Positions 1 through 5,675 of a stretch of DNA of 5,675 nucleotides are shown here, one piece after another. A program made the translations under genes and the position numbers. The DNA comes from a virus (Duplodnaviria; Heunggongvirae; Uroviricota; Caudoviricetes): IMG/VR virus record IMGVR_UViG_2695420514_000021; one strand, written 5' to 3'. Numbering within the stretch: position 1 is the first letter of the stretch; every line of letters starts with the position of its first letter. The notes beneath the pieces are model-generated. The model saw only the letters and a list, made by a program, of their open reading frames with translations, was not told the DNA's origin and searched no databases.

Positions 1-756
1 GAAATTATCAGTAAGATTGGTGCCGATGCTGTGGCATTGCCTGAGAATTTCCGCATTCATGATCTGGAAAAATTTAATTTAAATCGCTTCCGTTTCCGTG
101 GTGCGCTTTCCACTGCCAGCATCGATGACTTTACCCGTTATTCTAAAGATCTTGCAGATGAAGGCACCCGCTGCTTTATCGATGCCGATAATATGCGAGC
201 AGTCAGTGTGCTTAACCTGGGTACTATTGATGAACCAGGTCACGCAGATAACACCGCCACTCTCAAACTGAAAAAGACAGCACCGTTCTCTGCCCTGTTG
301 TCTGTTAACGGCGAGCGTAACTCCCAGAAGTCACTGGCAGAATGGATTGAAGACTGGGCCGACTACCTTGTGGGCTTTGATGCTAATGGTGACGCTATTC
401 AGGCAACAAAAGCGGCTGCGGCGGTCCGTAAAATCACGATTGAAGCAAACCAGACCGCTGATTTTGAAGATAATGACTTCAGCGGCAAACGCTCCCTGAT
501 GGAGTCTGTCGAAGCGAAGACCAAAGACATTATGCCAGTGGCATTTGAATTTAAATGCGTTCCGTTTGAAGGTCTGAAAGAACGTCCATTTAAATTACGC
601 CTCAGCATTATCACTGGCGATCGTCCTGTACTGGTTCTGCGCATTATTCAGCTGGAAGCGGTGCAGGAAGAAATGGCTAACGAATTTCGTGATCTGCTTG
701 TTGAGAAATTTAAAGACAGCAAAGTAGAAACCTTTATTGGTACTTTCACCGCCTGA
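1..756 (+). CDS. yfdQ: YfdQ-like prophage protein (DUF2303 family), 5'-truncated by the window edge
   Basis: The open frame runs in-frame from nt 1 ([17 protein letters not shown]...) to TGA at 754-756, so the GTG at 31 is internal, not the start. The translation matches my recollection of CPS-53 YfdQ, and the gene sits directly upstream of yfdR/yfdS-like genes as in K-12. Confidence 0.8.
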
Positions 757-768
757 TTTCATTACTGC

Positions 769-795
769 AAATGCCCCTGCGGGGGCATTTATGGA
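769..795 (+). terminator. Putative rho-independent terminator or attenuator hairpin after the yfdQ-like gene
   Basis: Perfect inverted repeat AATGCCCC (770-777), loop TGCG, GGGGCATT (782-789), followed by TTAT. The U-tract is short, so it may be a partial terminator or processing site within the operon. Confidence 0.45.
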
Positions 796-883
796 AACAT
801 AATTTACTCAATAATCGCCGGATAGTGAGGGCTTCCTTTTACCAGAATTCAGCGCGGTGCAGCGCATATACGTGGAGAACAAA

Positions 884-1420
884 ATGTCATTTATTAAAAC
901 TTTTTCCGGGAAGCATTTTTATTATGACAGGATAAATAAAGACGACATCGTTATTAACGATATCGCGGTTTCCCTTTCAAATATCTGTCGCTTTGCAGGA
1001 CATCTTTCACACTTCTACAGCGTCGCCCAACATGCGGTGCTTTGCAGCCAGCTGGTACCGCAGGAATTTGCTTTTGAAGCGTTAATGCATGATGCAACAG
1101 AAGCATATTGCCAGGACATCCCCGCACCACTGAAACGCCTTCTTCCTGACTATAAACGGATGGAAGAAAAAATAGACGCCGTAATCCGTGAGAAATACGG
1201 GTTACCTCCTGTTATGAGCACGCCAGTGAAATATGCCGATCTCATTATGCTGGCAACCGAACGCCGCGATCTCGGGCTTGATGATGGCTCTTTCTGGCCT
1301 GTACTGGAAGGTATCCCGGCGACAGAGATGTTCAAAGTTATTCCACTGTCACCAGGCCATGCCTACGGGATGTTTATGGAACGTTTTAACGAGTTATCGG
1401 AGTTACGCAAATGCGCATGA
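884..1420 (+). CDS. yfdR: HD-domain phosphohydrolase (5'-deoxynucleotidase YfdR-like), 178 aa
   Basis: ATG at 884 is preceded by GGAGA at 873-877. The translation has a His...His-Asp signature (GHLSH; MHD at codons 68-70, nt 1085-1093) typical of HD phosphohydrolases. Length and sequence match my recollection of CPS-53 YfdR. The in-frame ATG at 857 lacks a good RBS. Confidence 0.88.
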   Translation: MSFIKTFSGKHFYYDRINKDDIVINDIAVSLSNICRFAGHLSHFYSVAQHAVLCSQLVPQEFAFEALMHDATEAYCQDIPAPLKRLLPDYKRMEEKIDAVIREKYGLPPVMSTPVKYADLIMLATERRDLGLDDGSFWPVLEGIPATEMFKVIPLSPGHAYGMFMERFNELSELRKCA

Positions 1421-1773
1421 ATGTTTTCGAAATGGAAGGGTTTCTTCGCGGGAAATGTGTACCGCGAGATCTGAAAGTGAACGAAACAAATGCTGAGTAC
1501 CTGGTACGTAAATTCGATGCGCTTGAAGCTAAATGTACGGCACTGGAAAACAAAATAATACCAGTGTCAGCTGAACTGCCACCAGCAAATGAAAGTGTTC
1601 TGTTATTTGATGCTAACGGAGAAGGCTGGCTAATTGGCTGGCGTTCTCTCTGGTACACCTGGGGACAAAAAGAAACCGGAGAATGGCAGTGGACATTTCA
1701 GGTCGGGGACCTTGAAAACGTCAATATCACTCACTGGGCAGTAATGCCGAAAGCACCGGAGAATAAGAAATGA
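1411..1773 (+). CDS. yfdS: YfdS-like prophage protein (DUF551-type), 120 aa
   Basis: ATG at 1411 with GGAG at 1399-1402. It overlaps the yfdR stop (TGA 1418-1420), indicating translational coupling. A Trp-rich C-terminus (GWLIGWRSLWYTWGQKETGEWQW) is typical of this family. A start at ATG 1417 is an alternative. Confidence 0.8.
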   Translation: MRMNVFEMEGFLRGKCVPRDLKVNETNAEYLVRKFDALEAKCTALENKIIPVSAELPPANESVLLFDANGEGWLIGWRSLWYTWGQKETGEWQWTFQVGDLENVNITHWAVMPKAPENKK

Positions 1774-1973
1774 GCGTGATAAAAACTCATACAGGAATTG
1801 TTATCACCCGAGACGGTCCGCAGGTAAAAAAACTGCACCAGACAAAGCGGATGTGGGTCGTCGGAAAAAACGAGTTTTACCACAAAGAAACCGGACGCCG
1901 CCACTTTGCAGAAAATACGCGCCGCCGACTGCTGATCGACAGCATCAAGCCTATCGAGGTGAAGCATGTTTAA
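1770..1973 (+). CDS. Small hypothetical phage protein, 67 aa, basic
   Basis: ATG at 1770 overlaps the yfdS stop (ATGA at 1770-1773). GGAGA at 1758-1762 gives RBS spacing of about 7 nt. Coding is supported mainly by the coupled arrangement; no family recognised. Confidence 0.55.
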   Translation: MSVIKTHTGIVITRDGPQVKKLHQTKRMWVVGKNEFYHKETGRRHFAENTRRRLLIDSIKPIEVKHV

Positions 1974-2205
1974 ACAGAACGAAAAATCTATCGCTCAAAT
2001 TGCTGAGTATATCCCGCGTGCGTGCCGGGGTATGCAGTTGCAGGAAGCCAAAGCGCGCCTGGAGAAAAAAATTGCGCTCTATATCGATGACGGCTGTGAT
2101 GCTGCCGTTCTTAACGCAGCGTTCGCGCCAGCTCTTAACAGTCATACGCGGGAGTCTTTTTTTTCGCGCATCGCAGCGCAGATCCGTAAAGGAGGCAACC
2201 AGTGA
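1966..2205 (+). CDS. Small hypothetical phage protein, 79 aa
   Basis: ATG at 1966 overlaps the preceding stop (TAA 1971-1973) and is preceded by GAGGTGAAGC. The gene ends in a GTGA overlap with the next gene. No family recognised. Confidence 0.6.
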   Translation: MFKQNEKSIAQIAEYIPRACRGMQLQEAKARLEKKIALYIDDGCDAAVLNAAFAPALNSHTRESFFSRIAAQIRKGGNQ

Positions 2206-2756
2206 GCGAGATTAACTATCAGGCTCTGCGACTGGCGGCAGAAAATGCAACACCAGGCGAATGGTGTGCTGATGACTACCATGGAGTAATTGCCGATGCC
2301 GGACTGAACGCCAATTACTACATAGCATCATGCTCAGGACCAGATAATCGCGCCAATAAACGATTCATAGCCGCCGCCAATCCTGCCACCGTCTTGGCGC
2401 TGCTGGATGAGCTGGAAGCAGCAGAGAAGCGAAACGCTGAATTACAAAGCGAGAATGCATACATCCGCAACCGGTACAAAGAACTGGACCTATTAATCGG
2501 GAAAAACATTCTGGTCATGCAGGCTGCCATTATCGAATGGCAGGCAACTGGCGACGCTAAGAGCGGACTGGCATGGATTTATAACACACTGTTTGGCCCT
2601 GGCGAATTACCGGACGAATCTGAGAAAGATGCTCAGGCCTACTTTAATCGCAAATATGCACCGATTGACGAAAAGCTTATGGCGCTTCACAAGTGGTTTT
2701 GGGAACAAAGTGAAGCCGAGCGCGCCGCCGCCAACATTGGTGTGAAGGGGAAGTGA
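2202..2756 (+). CDS. Ead/Ea22-like family protein, 184 aa
   Basis: GTG start at 2202 with a strong RBS AAAGGAGG at 2188-2195. The N-terminus (MSEINYQALR..AENATPGEW) and the DNRANKRFIAAANPATVLALLDELEAAEKRNAELQ segment resemble Ead/Ea22-like proteins of lambdoid prophages as I recall them. A central segment looks coiled-coil. Confidence 0.7.
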   Translation: MSEINYQALRLAAENATPGEWCADDYHGVIADAGLNANYYIASCSGPDNRANKRFIAAANPATVLALLDELEAAEKRNAELQSENAYIRNRYKELDLLIGKNILVMQAAIIEWQATGDAKSGLAWIYNTLFGPGELPDESEKDAQAYFNRKYAPIDEKLMALHKWFWEQSEAERAAANIGVKGK

Positions 2757-2757
2757 G

Positions 2758-2949
2758 ATGAACGGACAAATCTCAATTGTTCGACCGGGAGCATGTGACG
2801 ATTGCGAGATACGAATGATTATTCGTCTGGCGAGGGGGAAAACAATAACTGCTCTCATTACTCCTGAAAATCTCGCATTAGCATTAACAGGAAAGTCAGA
2901 CCTGCCAGTAGAGCTAAAGCTGCGAAATATTGAGATTAAAGTGAAATAG
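2758..2949 (+). CDS. Small hypothetical phage protein, 63 aa
   Basis: ATG at 2758 lies 1 nt after the upstream stop (TGA 2754-2756), with GAAGGGGAAG just upstream as RBS. No family recognised. Confidence 0.5.
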   Translation: MNGQISIVRPGACDDCEIRMIIRLARGKTITALITPENLALALTGKSDLPVELKLRNIEIKVK

Positions 2950-2951
2950 TT

Positions 2952-3719
2952 ATGAATACTCTTACCAAAGAATGGTTACAGAACACGATTACCAGCATTG
3001 AGTCAGCACGGGATGAAATACCGTTCGGACTCGATGAAGATCAAAACAACATGCTTACCGCATTAAAAATTGCACTGGCATCACTGGCAGCAGTATCAGA
3101 TGAACGAGCAGCCTATGAATTATTTATGGAGAAGCGTTTCGGGGAATCTGTAGATCGTCGCAGAGCAAAAAATGGCGATTGCGAATACATGGCATGGGAT
3201 ATGGCGCTTGGCTGGATTATCTGGTGTCACCGCACCGCCATGCTTCAGGGTAACCAACCTGTAAGCCAAACTTACAAGTTTCCACAAACGCAGTTTGAAG
3301 AGGTTGCTGACCTCTACGAAATGCAATTTGATGACGGACGCACTTGTGCCTTTCATAGTGATGTGCAAAAGGCTGCACAATGGCTTCAGGCATGCGACGG
3401 AAACAGGGTTCAGGAATACGTGAAGTTGGAACGATTGCAGAACGCGCTGTCTGATAACTCTCCAGTAACTCCGGATGGTTGGGTTATGGTTCCGAAGAAA
3501 CTAACCGCTGAGAACGGCGCTAAAGGTGTGCTATCCGGTGAATTTTCAGAATCTACGTTTATAAGCTGCCCGGAATGTTTTGGCGATGATGATTGCGATA
3601 CCTGTGACGGGAGCGGACGTATTGAAATTAAAGTGCCAGTCACGTGGTCGACCATAAAATCTATCTGGGATAAAGGTATCGAGTATTTTGCAGCAAAACC
3701 ATCACAAGAGGTGAAGTGA
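2952..3719 (+). CDS. Hypothetical phage protein, 255 aa, with a C-terminal DnaJ-type zinc-ribbon-like motif
   Basis: Long ORF with ATG at 2952, 2 nt after the upstream stop. The motif CPECFGDDDCDTCDGSG at nt 3567-3617 contains a CxxCxGxG unit plus a second CxxC. The RBS is weak, so the exact start is uncertain. Confidence 0.75.
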   Translation: MNTLTKEWLQNTITSIESARDEIPFGLDEDQNNMLTALKIALASLAAVSDERAAYELFMEKRFGESVDRRRAKNGDCEYMAWDMALGWIIWCHRTAMLQGNQPVSQTYKFPQTQFEEVADLYEMQFDDGRTCAFHSDVQKAAQWLQACDGNRVQEYVKLERLQNALSDNSPVTPDGWVMVPKKLTAENGAKGVLSGEFSESTFISCPECFGDDDCDTCDGSGRIEIKVPVTWSTIKSIWDKGIEYFAAKPSQEVK

Positions 3720-4291
3720 TGAACAACTTAATGATCGACCTTGAGACGATGGGGAAAAATAAGGATGCACCGATCGTTTCCATTGGCGCGGTGTTCTTCA
3801 CTCCAGAAACCGGAGACATCGGACAAGAATTCTATGCGGTTGTCAGCCTAGACAGTGCTATGAAGCAAGGAGCTACACCTGACGGCGATACCATCCTGTG
3901 GTGGTTGAAACAAAGCCCTGAAGCGCGAGCTGCAATCTGTATTGATGATACTTTGTCGATCAGCGATGCTCTCTCAGAACTAAACCATTTCATTAACCGG
4001 CACGCAGACAATACGAAATATTTAAAAGTCTGGGGTAACGGGGCCACCTTCGACAACGTAATTTTACGTGGAGCTTATGAGCGAGCAGGACAAATCTGCC
4101 CGTGGGCGTACTGGAATGACCACGATGTACGCACGATCGTTACGCTTGGGCGTTCCATCGGATTCGACCCCAAAATGGACATGCCTTTCGATGGCGAACG
4201 GCACAACGCCCTGGCTGATGCCCGTCATCAGGCAAAATATGTTTCCGCTATCTGGCAGAAATTAATTCCTGCCACCAGCACAGAATTATGA
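3719..4291 (+). CDS. Prophage 3'-5' exonuclease of the DEDDh (DnaQ-like) superfamily, 190 aa
   Basis: ATG at 3719 (the GTG at 3716 overlaps the upstream TGA), with GAGGTG at 3706-3711 as RBS. The translation shows Exo I (MIDLETMG), Exo II (WGNGATFDNVIL) and Exo III (HNALADARH, HxxxxD) motifs in the expected order. This small exonuclease is a conserved resident next to xis/int in lambdoid prophages; the truncated ypdJ of K-12 is the equivalent remnant, as far as I recall. Confidence 0.85.
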   Translation: MNNLMIDLETMGKNKDAPIVSIGAVFFTPETGDIGQEFYAVVSLDSAMKQGATPDGDTILWWLKQSPEARAAICIDDTLSISDALSELNHFINRHADNTKYLKVWGNGATFDNVILRGAYERAGQICPWAYWNDHDVRTIVTLGRSIGFDPKMDMPFDGERHNALADARHQAKYVSAIWQKLIPATSTEL

Positions 4292-4327
4292 TTTTCCCGG
4301 GTGCAGCCGGTTTTGATGGAGAAAATT

Positions 4328-4597
4328 ATGAACACCTTGTTTTTACTGATGGCTGAATTCAATACCCCAAACATTGAACTCTCAGCAGTTAGTCAAAAAT
4401 ACTTTGGTATGAGTCCAGCCACAGCAGAAGCAAAAGCAAACGCTTGTAAGTTGCCTGTACCTACATATCGCATCGGTACATCACAAAAAGCAAAACGCTG
4501 CATCAACATTCAGGATCTTGCGGAATATATTGACAAAAGACGGGAAGAAGGGCGAGCTGAGTGGGAAAAAGTCAGAACGGAAAAAAAATATAACTAA
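4328..4597 (+). CDS. Excisionase-like DNA-binding protein (PrtN/AlpA-type), 89 aa
   Basis: ATG at 4328 with GGAG at 4317-4320. The N-terminus MNTLFLLMAEF and the ...SQKAKRCINIQDLAEYIDKRREEG segment resemble the PrtN family as I recall it. It is the last gene of the + strand operon, the canonical xis position. The in-frame ATG at 4301 lacks an RBS. Confidence 0.75.
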   Translation: MNTLFLLMAEFNTPNIELSAVSQKYFGMSPATAEAKANACKLPVPTYRIGTSQKAKRCINIQDLAEYIDKRREEGRAEWEKVRTEKKYN

Positions 4598-4610
4598 ACT
4601 AAAACTATGG

Positions 4611-4642
4611 ATAACCCGTATATGTACGGGTTATTTTTCTTT
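4611..4642. terminator. Rho-independent terminator between convergent genes, probably bidirectional
   Basis: Stem AACCCGTA (4613-4620), loop TATG, TACGGGTT (4625-4632), followed on the + strand by ATTTTTCTTTAT. On the - strand the T-tract is poorer and starts a few nt after the stem. The TAA stop of the - strand gene (4631-4633) lies inside the stem. Confidence 0.7.
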
Positions 4643-5179
4643 ATCACTATCTTTTCTTGATTTGAACAATCCACTAACAACGAAACCAACCAAACCAACA
4701 ATACTAATTGTACTTGTACCTAGTAATGCAACGATCGCTTCAACTGGAGGCTTTCCTTCATGTGCAATAAGAAACGATGTAAACATTGCGACAACGAATA
4801 AGCACCAACACGACATAAACCAAACCGTGAATGATGCCATTTTTGTCCGGAGCTCATTGTCTATTTCTTTACCAGTTGCGTCAGCTATCTTATCCCGTAC
4901 TTGTGATTTGAGCATATCAAGCTGAGCTTGAAGACTGTCCATTCTGTTCTGCTGCATAAACTCATGCAATGCACCAGTATTAGAACCAAACTCTTCTTCC
5001 TCCAGAATAGCCTTATTTTCTGAAGAAGAATCATCATCGCGTTCATGATTAGACGGCTCAAATGCGGATTCAAAAGCCTGCTCTTGACTGTCAGTAGAGT
5101 TTAAGGATGCTTCAGAGCGACCATTTTCAACACCTGCGGCCGCTCCGATCAGTTTATAGATATCTGAATTATGAGACAT
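4631..5179 (-). CDS. Hypothetical membrane protein, 182 aa: acidic Ser/Glu/Asp-rich N-terminal domain plus two predicted C-terminal TM helices; candidate toxin/effector partner of the upstream Panacea-like gene
   Basis: ATG at 5179-5177 (- strand) preceded by AGGGATGAC, stop TAA at 4633-4631. The N-terminal roughly 110 aa are hydrophilic and acidic (ERDDDSSSENKAILEEEEFG) with a likely helical stretch (MDSLQAQLDMLKSQVRDKIADATG). Two hydrophobic stretches follow (FTVWFMSCWCLFVVAMFTSFLIA and AIVALLGTSTISIVGLVGFVVSGLF, about nt 4664-4831). No family recognised. Confidence 0.72.
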   Translation of the reverse strand: MSHNSDIYKLIGAAAGVENGRSEASLNSTDSQEQAFESAFEPSNHERDDDSSSENKAILEEEEFGSNTGALHEFMQQNRMDSLQAQLDMLKSQVRDKIADATGKEIDNELRTKMASFTVWFMSCWCLFVVAMFTSFLIAHEGKPPVEAIVALLGTSTISIVGLVGFVVSGLFKSRKDSDKEK

Positions 5180-5201
5180 GTCATCCCTGAATATTACTTT
5201 T

Positions 5202-5675
5202 TCAGAGGCCCTGACATTGCTGTCGGTTATTCAATAAATCATGATAATAAGCCTTGATCGCATCATTTGAGATGATCGACGAGCCAATACCATTATAAGC
5301 TTGTGACCAAGGCGTACCTGGCATATGAGTTAGAGTTGATAACTCAATTCCATTTTTCGAGCCGTAAAACTTATAAACAGCCCCGATAATGCTCTCTGCT
5401 TGCGGATCCATAGTAACGATGCCACCAAAAGGAGCTACTGCTACATTCGTAACAGGTTTATTCCCATAGTCTTTGAAAGCATCGTACATTCCAGGAATAA
5501 CTGGACCGTACTTCCACGCGGAGACACATTCATTGAGCAAAGGCTTACCTGTTAATGCTAAATAGTAACCATGGGCAATATAAGTAAGCTTCTGCAGTTG
5601 CATGTGGGTCAGAGGATTATGATGTTGGTTTCCCAACGTTATGAATTTATTGGCTATTTGTACCGGACTGTACAT
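5202..5675 (-). CDS. Panacea-domain (DUF4065; COG3600/GepA, SocA-like) protein, 157 aa; putative antitoxin or adaptor
   Basis: The ATG is the last three nt of the window (5675-5673, - strand), stop TGA at 5204-5202. The N-terminus MYSPVQIANKFI and the core LQKLTYIAHGYYLALTGKPLLNECVSAWKYGPVIPGMYDAFKDYG (about nt 5484-5600) match the Panacea/DUF4065 pattern as I recall it. The ORF could extend beyond the window edge, since no upstream stop or RBS is visible. Confidence 0.75.
   Translation of the reverse strand: MYSPVQIANKFITLGNQHHNPLTHMQLQKLTYIAHGYYLALTGKPLLNECVSAWKYGPVIPGMYDAFKDYGNKPVTNVAVAPFGGIVTMDPQAESIIGAVYKFYGSKNGIELSTLTHMPGTPWSQAYNGIGSSIISNDAIKAYYHDLLNNRQQCQGL

Follow-up and report, generated by a model that had tools for sequence, protein, structure and literature searches.

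A PanA-PanT toxin-antitoxin cassette between xis and attR of a dusA prophage, within a region of low GC content

The window (the whole stretch of DNA analysed, 5675 nt from a Caudoviricetes virus, IMG/VR record IMGVR_UViG_2695420514_000021) divides into two parts. On the + strand, Pfam and PHROG matches identify a typical lambdoid early-left block, with xis as the final gene of the leftward early operon; the right end is occupied by two genes on the − strand. An Rfam scan of the whole window found no RNA family. The features are as follows.

+ strand block: a DUF2303/YfdQ protein
+ strand: a YfdR-like 5'-deoxynucleotidase with an HD domain, whose Pfam match is weak (E = 3e-5, narrowly missing the curated cut-off) and whose close homologues bear the annotation yfdR
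+ strand block: DUF551 and Ead/Ea22 proteins
+ strand block: an Rv2179c-like 3'-5' exonuclease (exo)
4301-4597, + strand: xis, a PrtN-family excisionase (Pfam PyocinActivator/PrtN, E = 3.8e-23; PHROG 1300 'excisionase', E = 6e-40)
4579-5675, no strand assigned: as much of the PanAT cargo cassette as the window covers; beyond 4578 there is no match to phages that carry a different cargo
4609-4636, both strands: the stem of a predicted hairpin terminator, found by a terminator scan, where xis and panT converge
4631-5179, − strand: panT, a predicted toxin of 182 aa (PHROG 13343, E = 1e-112; class T3 of Kurata)
5180-5201, − strand: the 22-nt panA-panT spacer, with a ribosome-binding site, AGGGA, before the panT ATG
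5202-5675, − strand: panA, a predicted antitoxin of 157 aa that consists of a stand-alone Panacea (DUF4065, PF13274) domain

The start codon of panA is the final triplet of the window. Residues 27-123 of PanA match the Pfam SocA_Panacea family with E = 5.9e-18 (66.3 bits; cut-off 25.7), and the GPV signature of the Panacea domain is present as G57-P58-V59, within SAWKYGPVIPGMY. Kurata et al. 2022 (PMC8832971) report this motif as critical for neutralisation. A PDB sequence search with PanA returned no match.

PanT has no Pfam family, and nothing credible was found in Pfam at a permissive threshold either. Its N-terminus is acidic (24 D/E and 9 K/R in positions 1-110) and Kyte-Doolittle hydropathy peaks at about 114-139 and about 145-172. 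Across 36 aligned homologues the conserved positions cluster in residues 103-173, ALLGTSTISIVGLVGFVVSGLFK among them, and a glycine-rich GLVGFVVSG stretch lies within the two predicted C-terminal transmembrane helices (about 114-139 and 146-172). In an AlphaFold model, a disordered N-terminus precedes two helices, a long one at 53-139 and another at 146-178, joined by a GKPP turn. The mean pLDDT of the model is 60.5 and its pTM 0.28; the 10-residue blocks spanning 111-170 average 71-85. Confidence is moderate, and in the helical hairpin only. By charge, hydropathy, conservation and the predicted helical hairpin, PanT is a putative T3-class membrane toxin.

Homologues of PanT detectable by sequence are confined to the Enterobacterales, with at most 65% identity outside Escherichia. 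In prophages of Enterobacter, Klebsiella and Providencia, at differing prophage positions, they are always preceded by a Panacea gene, with a gap of ~20-25 nt between the two. The allele in the window is WP_059274466.1. It differs by 1-6 residues from WP_000019186.1, WP_000019187.1, WP_032209643.1 and the copy in the phage PhiR47_1, all of which stand beside an identical PanA, and the 182-aa PanT alleles at the panAT locus are mutually 93-99% identical.

By gene order and spacing, panA and panT are predicted to form a bicistronic operon. The cassette bears a strong GGAGG ribosome-binding site, and the panA leader contains CAGTG repeats. In related loci, where the sequence continues beyond the end of the window, panA is preceded at a distance of 158-185 nt by a perfect TTGACA-16-TATAAT; in one related locus the predicted promoter matches the sigma-70 consensus at 12/12 positions, which is a consensus match only. 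At the other end, the hairpin overlaps the panT stop codon (4631-4633). Its folding energy is -14.3 kcal/mol (z = -3.5) for the + strand and -12.7 kcal/mol (z = -3.6) for the − strand. As an intrinsic terminator it appears good for + transcripts, where TTTTTCTTT comes after it, and weaker in the − direction. The hairpin belongs to the cassette and not to the conserved backbone; other cassettes have different hairpins at that place. The PanAT cassette is thus, as far as these predicted signals go, an autonomous transcription unit, and a predicted promoter and terminator of its own give it the structure by which a moron is defined.

The Panacea/DUF4065 domain of PanA is shared with SocA of the type VI Caulobacter SocAB system, the founding Panacea protein. 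SocA acts as a ClpXP adaptor for the degradation of SocB, and SocB blocks the DNA sliding clamp. Against the NCBIfam model SocA_antitoxin (NF047745) PanA gives E = 1e-27 and 97 bits, well under the equivalog cut-off of 190 and hence outside that equivalog. Unlike in SocAB, the toxin here is a predicted membrane protein and its neutralisation is reported as direct binding. A compositionally similar pair, PanT(D11)-PanA of Bartonella choladocola (formerly B. apis), likewise sets a stand-alone Panacea protein against a membrane toxin whose N-terminus is unstructured and whose transmembrane region is C-terminal. There, the Panacea core binds the toxin directly, at the region before the transmembrane helices (Ernits et al. 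2023, PMC10440598). The Bartonella toxin belongs to cluster T12 and that of E. coli to T3, and the authors of the classification treat their homology as uncertain (Kurata 2022).

A much closer relative is available in E. coli itself. PV340566 (Escherichia phage PhiR47_1) is 98.1% identical to the window over 4250-5675, with the two genes annotated as PanA antitoxin and PanT toxin, and over 4598-5675 the window does not differ from E. coli MB06101 (100% identity). All 157 of the 157 residues of PanA are identical to WP_000287252.1, which is the Panacea gene product in MB06101 and the annotated CDS in four related loci. Table 1 of Kurata 2022 (PMC8832971) gives WP_000287252.1 as the antitoxin in the validated pair from E. 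coli STEC O31, with 'Membrane' as the toxin target, and counts nine experimentally verified PanAT pairs, this one included. The supplement to the same paper lists the pair as antitoxin then toxin, with a 22-nt gap and a toxin of cluster T3; the STEC O31 system (Kurata et al. 2022, PNAS 119:e2102212119) therefore has the same PanA, order and gap as the window, and its PanT has the same build, a charged N-terminus followed by C-terminal transmembrane helices.

For E. coli PanT, that paper reports that transcription, translation and replication are stopped indiscriminately, that the membrane is depolarised and SYTOX Green enters (read by the authors as large pores), and that the toxin is neutralised by its cognate PanA (WP_000287252.1 with WP_000019185.1), Panacea antitoxins forming complexes with their toxins (PMC8832971). 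There are two differences from our locus. First, the toxin in the window is WP_059274466.1, whereas WP_000019185.1 was the one tested in the STEC O31 pair; the supplements give the latter by accession only. Since PanT alleles found with an identical PanA differ by only 1-6 residues, WP_000019185.1 is presumably another near-identical allele. Second, the STEC O31 locus is flagged 'NotPhage' in the source table (Kurata 2022), whereas all complete-genome copies recorded here lie at the xis-attR end of a dusA prophage. By identical PanA, allelic PanT, same order, same gap and GenBank annotation, the pair in the window is the known E. coli PanA-PanT.

The setting of the pair was defined by comparison with related phages and with complete genomes. 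Downstream of panA come 244 bp of cassette-specific sequence, a 61-bp conserved phage arm and then the attR dusA fragment (105 nt); in complete genomes, the neighbourhood of zur, dinF and lexA follows. This order of flanks, up to the dusA fragment, indicates that the element is a lambdoid prophage integrated in dusA, with panA as the last gene before attR. By these comparisons the host element is an mEp460-like lambdoid prophage in dusA, with PanAT at its right end between xis and attR. In the circular phage mEp460, int follows attP and is divergent from the cargo, while in the PhiR47_1 prophage int lies at the opposite end (41690-42787).

The survey took in 5426 complete E. coli genomes: 3470 have parts of the + strand block, 741 the xis of the window and 79 panAT. 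The panA-dusA junction is present in all 79 of the PanAT genomes and the xis-panT junction in 78 of them. Among sampled xis-bearing genomes, at least three further − strand cargos take the place of panAT in this slot, between identical flanks. The occupants are as follows.

− strand: a 177-aa and 57-aa set, in 358 genomes (O157:H7 among them) and also in phage mEp460
− strand: a distantly related Panacea protein of 190 aa, paired with an unrelated protein of 128 aa and accompanied by a 57-aa gene, in 208 genomes
− strand: PanA157-PanT182, in 79 genomes
− strand: a 179-aa protein with a YafO-family toxin, in 49 genomes

Pfam searches at a permissive threshold turned up no credible family for the partner proteins of the alternative cassettes. 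The 177-aa protein, the commonest occupant of the slot (358 genomes), is without a family match, and a PDB sequence search with it was likewise without a match.

The limits of the exchanged segment can be read from the decay of identity across xis. Related phages are 98-99% identical to the window up to 4578, and homology is lost beyond. Compared with phages that carry other cargo, identity is 97-100% in 4301-4400, 93-99% in 4401-4500 and 81-90% in 4501-4578; the more distant elppa4 prophage gives 93% and 78% for the first two intervals. These values place a hard boundary at ~4578 and suggest that the 3' half of xis is linked to the cassette. Phages that carry PanAT have an identical xis and an exo that is only 96% identical. 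The last ~20 nt of xis (4579-4597) are cassette-specific sequence, and both the C-terminal tail of xis and the hairpin terminator come with the cassette in every case. On the far side, homology resumes at GGTTCCCAATAGGCTCCCACAAA (seven related loci). The alignment to related prophages that the original prediction had proposed as a check thus yields both boundaries, ~4578 and the conserved 61-bp arm.

A search for flanking direct or inverted repeats of transposon type around the cassette found only short matches that are probably due to chance. Transposition of the cassette was considered as a candidate and is disfavoured by this lack of flanking repeats, and exchange of cassettes by homologous recombination is preferred for the same reason.

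The − strand module had been proposed to be a moron, inserted between xis and int or att. That panAT is found in 79 genomes and xis in 741, and that mEp460 and others carry a different cargo, bears out the first part. Moron status is shown here by genome comparison and not by GC. The second part holds for location (PanAT lies from xis to attR, and int follows attP) but not for insertion, as alternative cassettes swap at this place. Like lambdoid morons and the cargo of att-site hotspots, the cassette is a promoter-gene-terminator unit, missing from close relatives and situated at a prophage end; unlike lambdoid morons, it has the composition of the neighbouring xis and int, and whole cassettes are exchanged between fixed flanks, where a typical moron would have been added to an unbroken operon.

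The composition of the window was the starting point of the original prediction, which held that GC content drops sharply at the terminator, in coincidence with the hairpin, and that the module had come from a lower-GC donor; a sliding-window profile was suggested as a check. The hand counts given for it are exact (33.3% in 4641-4700, 40.0% in 4701-4760, 35.0% in 5221-5280, 56.7% in 2341-2400 and 46.7% in 3001-3060). These 60-nt stretches are a selective sample of the window. Exact counts over the full length give 46.9% GC for 1-4600 and 40.7% for 4601-5675; the drop in GC is thus real but modest. Its sharpness at the terminator did not hold: the 300-nt flanks of position 4600 have 40.7% and 38.3% GC, i.e. 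there is no local contrast, whereas the 300-nt flanks of position 4300 have 50.7% and 40.7%.

The same displacement is seen with a formal test. The single change point of maximum likelihood for GC lies at position 4310, at the exo/xis junction (log-likelihood ratio 10.5), and a ratio of 10.5 was matched in no more than 1 of 1000 shuffles, whether of single bases or of 30-, 100- or 300-nt blocks. For a change point at 4600 the ratio is lower, at 7.0. The break therefore falls where xis begins, a whole gene before the hairpin with which it was said to coincide; the significant step looked for by sliding window exists, at ~4310 rather than ~4600. The GC of xis, 40.7%, is the same as that of 4598-5675 (Fisher p = 1.0), so that a composition distinct from the flanking phage genes, as might be looked for in a moron, was not found. 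The spot counts of GC had thus put the boundary ~300 nt off the true compositional step, which is a caution on the method.

The sliding-window profile also shows equally deep dips within the + strand block (39.3% in 701-1000 and 41.0% in 2801-3100), and the GC of the + strand genes spans 42.2%-50.8%. An abrupt change near 4600 is seen in the skew instead, with GC skew reaching -0.235 and AT skew falling from ~+0.2 to ~0, because the coding strand switches there. The GC step was also considered as a candidate for the boundary of homology and was rejected, the step being at 4310 and homology being lost at 4578. Recombination breakpoints are spread over xis and exo, roughly where the GC step falls.

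Low GC is found well beyond PanAT. In six loci measured, xis has 40-43% GC and the cargo 39-43%, regardless of which of the four cargos is present; the 2.5 kb upstream in the same six loci have 47-49% GC in five and 39% in one. In strain MB06101, the 3 kb adjoining the PanAT module have 41.8% GC. The genome of PhiR47_1 has 50.5% GC, and its 58 genes a mean of 49.6% (sd 5.5). When these genes are ranked from the lowest GC, PanT is 3rd, xis 5th, PanA 6th, cI 7th (42.1%) and int 8th (42.3%), and the z-scores of the PanAT module (-1.7 and -1.9) resemble that of xis (-1.7). Low GC thus characterises all of the attP region, core genes such as xis and int included.

These values bear on the reading in which the GC drop marks the − strand module as a recent gain from a lower-GC donor, with its boundary at the hairpin. 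In keeping with such a gain, the module has 40.7% GC, and GC3 is 0.39 in panA and 0.31 in panT, against 0.42-0.57 in the + strand genes other than xis (0.38) and a 63-aa ORF (0.36); PanT ranks as low as third in PhiR47_1; the PanAT homologues of Providencia have 39.8% GC, like their low-GC host; and those of Enterobacter (43.7%) and Klebsiella (45.5%) are lower than the flanking DNA on at least one side. Against it stand the change point at 4310 and the lack of local contrast at 4600, the low GC that is common to xis, int, cI and DinI, and the 39-43% GC of every alternative cargo of the slot. The closest relatives of PanT, all from Enterobacterales and at no more than 65% identity, leave no recent donor identifiable. 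Accessory genes near attachment sites are AT-rich in general, which also counts against a particular donor. As the core genes xis, int and cI and every cargo are low in GC, low GC points to no particular donor, and we consider this recent gain quite improbable; the claim of acquisition from a lower-GC donor is not upheld.

We therefore return to a joint explanation, to which we assign a probability of about 0.9: positions 4579-5675 are most of a panA-panT cassette that encodes a membrane toxin, that shares a low GC content with its region, and that came to its place by cassette exchange. In the mechanism proposed, panA and panT would be co-transcribed on the − strand from the cassette's own promoter, just past the end of the window, and transcription would run toward xis and end at the hairpin at 4609-4636. 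PanT would place its two C-terminal helices in the inner membrane, where free toxin would depolarise and permeabilise the cell, and PanA would neutralise it through direct protein-protein binding. For the pair with the identical PanA and an allelic PanT, these activities have been demonstrated by experiment (Kurata et al. 2022). Cassettes would be swapped by recombination in the conserved flanks, i.e. the 3' part of xis and the 61-bp att arm.

As to what such a cassette does in a lysogen, we infer that panAT is an abortive-infection or a prophage-stabilising module. The first role, in which panAT serves mainly in anti-phage abortive infection, an invading phage freeing PanT so that the membrane potential collapses before the phage cycle is completed, is a plausible reading that we place a little short of even odds. 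The system is prophage-borne, with a consensus promoter of its own, in a slot that has only toxin-antitoxin-like cargos, and in Providencia a homologous pair adjoins type I restriction-modification genes. A role of Panacea as a sensor, and of these toxin-antitoxin systems in defence, has been argued by Ernits et al. 2023 (PMC10440598). On the other hand, a phage-protection assay for E. coli PanAT was not found in the literature searched, and PADLOC (2023) gave only noise-level matches for PanA and PanT, with no matching model.

The second role, in which panAT is mainly an addiction module that stabilises the prophage or is coupled to its induction, seems unlikely to us. In the induction variant, antiterminated leftward read-through via xis and the hairpin could produce an antisense transcript to panT-panA and so shift the toxin:antitoxin ratio. 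The convergence of xis and panT, with only the hairpin between them, would suit this, as would the place of the cassette at the extreme end of the prophage, adjoining attR. However, the stabilisation and induction readings are purely inferential, stabilisation by type II systems is classically described for plasmids, and the hairpin looks efficient as a + strand terminator.

A wider reading concerns the slot itself. In E. coli lambdoid prophages that integrate in dusA, the ~1.1-1.5 kb between xis and attR may be a dedicated, exchangeable site for toxin-antitoxin or defence genes, in which case the 177-aa protein would represent a new toxin or defence function and the CAGTG repeats an operator for some regulator; we regard this combination as possible and put it forward tentatively, as something rather less than an even chance. 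No literature on the xis-attR slot was found in our searches.

panA-panT is already known, as a published and experimentally validated toxin-antitoxin system, and because the gene pair has been published and validated, its recognition here adds little. What is mildly new is the consistent location of PanAT in a swappable xis-attR slot of dusA prophages, and the companions that it has there. That a system flagged 'NotPhage' alternates in a prophage slot with toxin-antitoxin-like pairs supports a phage-related role. With low GC common to the core integration genes, base composition is unusable here for calling foreign DNA or for naming a donor. The xis-attR slot itself is a defined natural system for studying what triggers PanT.

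In 79 of 79 complete-genome copies, E. coli PanAT was found to be part of a dusA-integrated lambdoid prophage. This contrasts with the 'NotPhage' flag carried by the validated PanAT of E. coli STEC O31 in supplementary file 2 of Kurata 2022 (PMC8832971). When xis was compared over window 4301-4578 with phages carrying other cargo, identity dropped steadily, from 97-100% to 83-90%. Phages carrying PanAT had a xis identical to that of the window and a more divergent exo gene, and thus the 3' half of xis is linked to the cassette. The C-terminal tail of Xis varies from cassette to cassette.

The slot between xis and the dusA attR holds other cargo in related loci:

L005 9657-10560; L018 2957-3860; phage mEp460 4408-5311: 177-aa and 57-aa cargo set
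L019 3170-4158; L020 3175-4163: 190-aa Panacea protein and 128-aa partner
L021 2927-3917: 179-aa protein and YafO-family toxin

The 177-aa and 57-aa proteins, also carried by mEp460, are the commonest cargo among the 5426 complete E. coli genomes (n = 358, O157:H7 among them); neither has a match in Pfam, NCBIfam or PADLOC, and a PDB sequence search with the 177-aa protein gave none. The 190-aa Panacea protein fills the slot in 208 genomes. It is a second, very distantly related member of the Panacea group, and its 128-aa partner is an unrelated, non-membrane protein; presumably they are a further, uncharacterised PanAT pair. In 49 genomes the occupant is the YafO-family toxin, preceded by the 179-aa protein, which has no family match and differs in size from the classical YafN antitoxin.

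Beyond the window end, the region upstream of panA was read in the related locus L017:

6379-6622: 244-bp cassette-specific panA leader
6536-6563, minus strand: candidate sigma-70 promoter, perfect consensus match

The promoter (TTGACA-16-TATAAT, 12/12 consensus positions) equates to 158-185 nt past the window end. The leader has five CAGTG/CACTG motifs, against 0.29 expected from shuffles, and these include the palindrome ACAGT-gatgat-ACTGT. These motifs may act as an operator, although PanA lacks a DNA-binding domain.

Among the early-left genes of the window is one further open reading frame:

2952-3719, plus strand: 255-aa ORF, homologues annotated DUF551 or EaA

It has no Pfam match, and its C-terminal end is a cysteine-rich motif, CPECFGDDDCDTCDGSG, similar to a zinc ribbon or a zinc finger of the DnaJ type. 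Across 1411-4291 (plus strand), gene stops and starts overlap or abut (1411/1420, 1770/1773, 1966/1973, 2202/2205 and 3716/3719, among others), tight packing that suggests translational coupling in the early-left operon.

Homologues of the pair also occur in a Providencia alcalifaciens prophage:

L015 5502-9692: PanA-PanT homologues and restriction-modification genes

Here the pair has the late antiterminator gene on one side and the lysis genes on the other, and immediately after it come genes for the methylase and the specificity subunit of a type I restriction-modification system. The site differs from the xis-attR slot and likewise gathers defence-type cargo.
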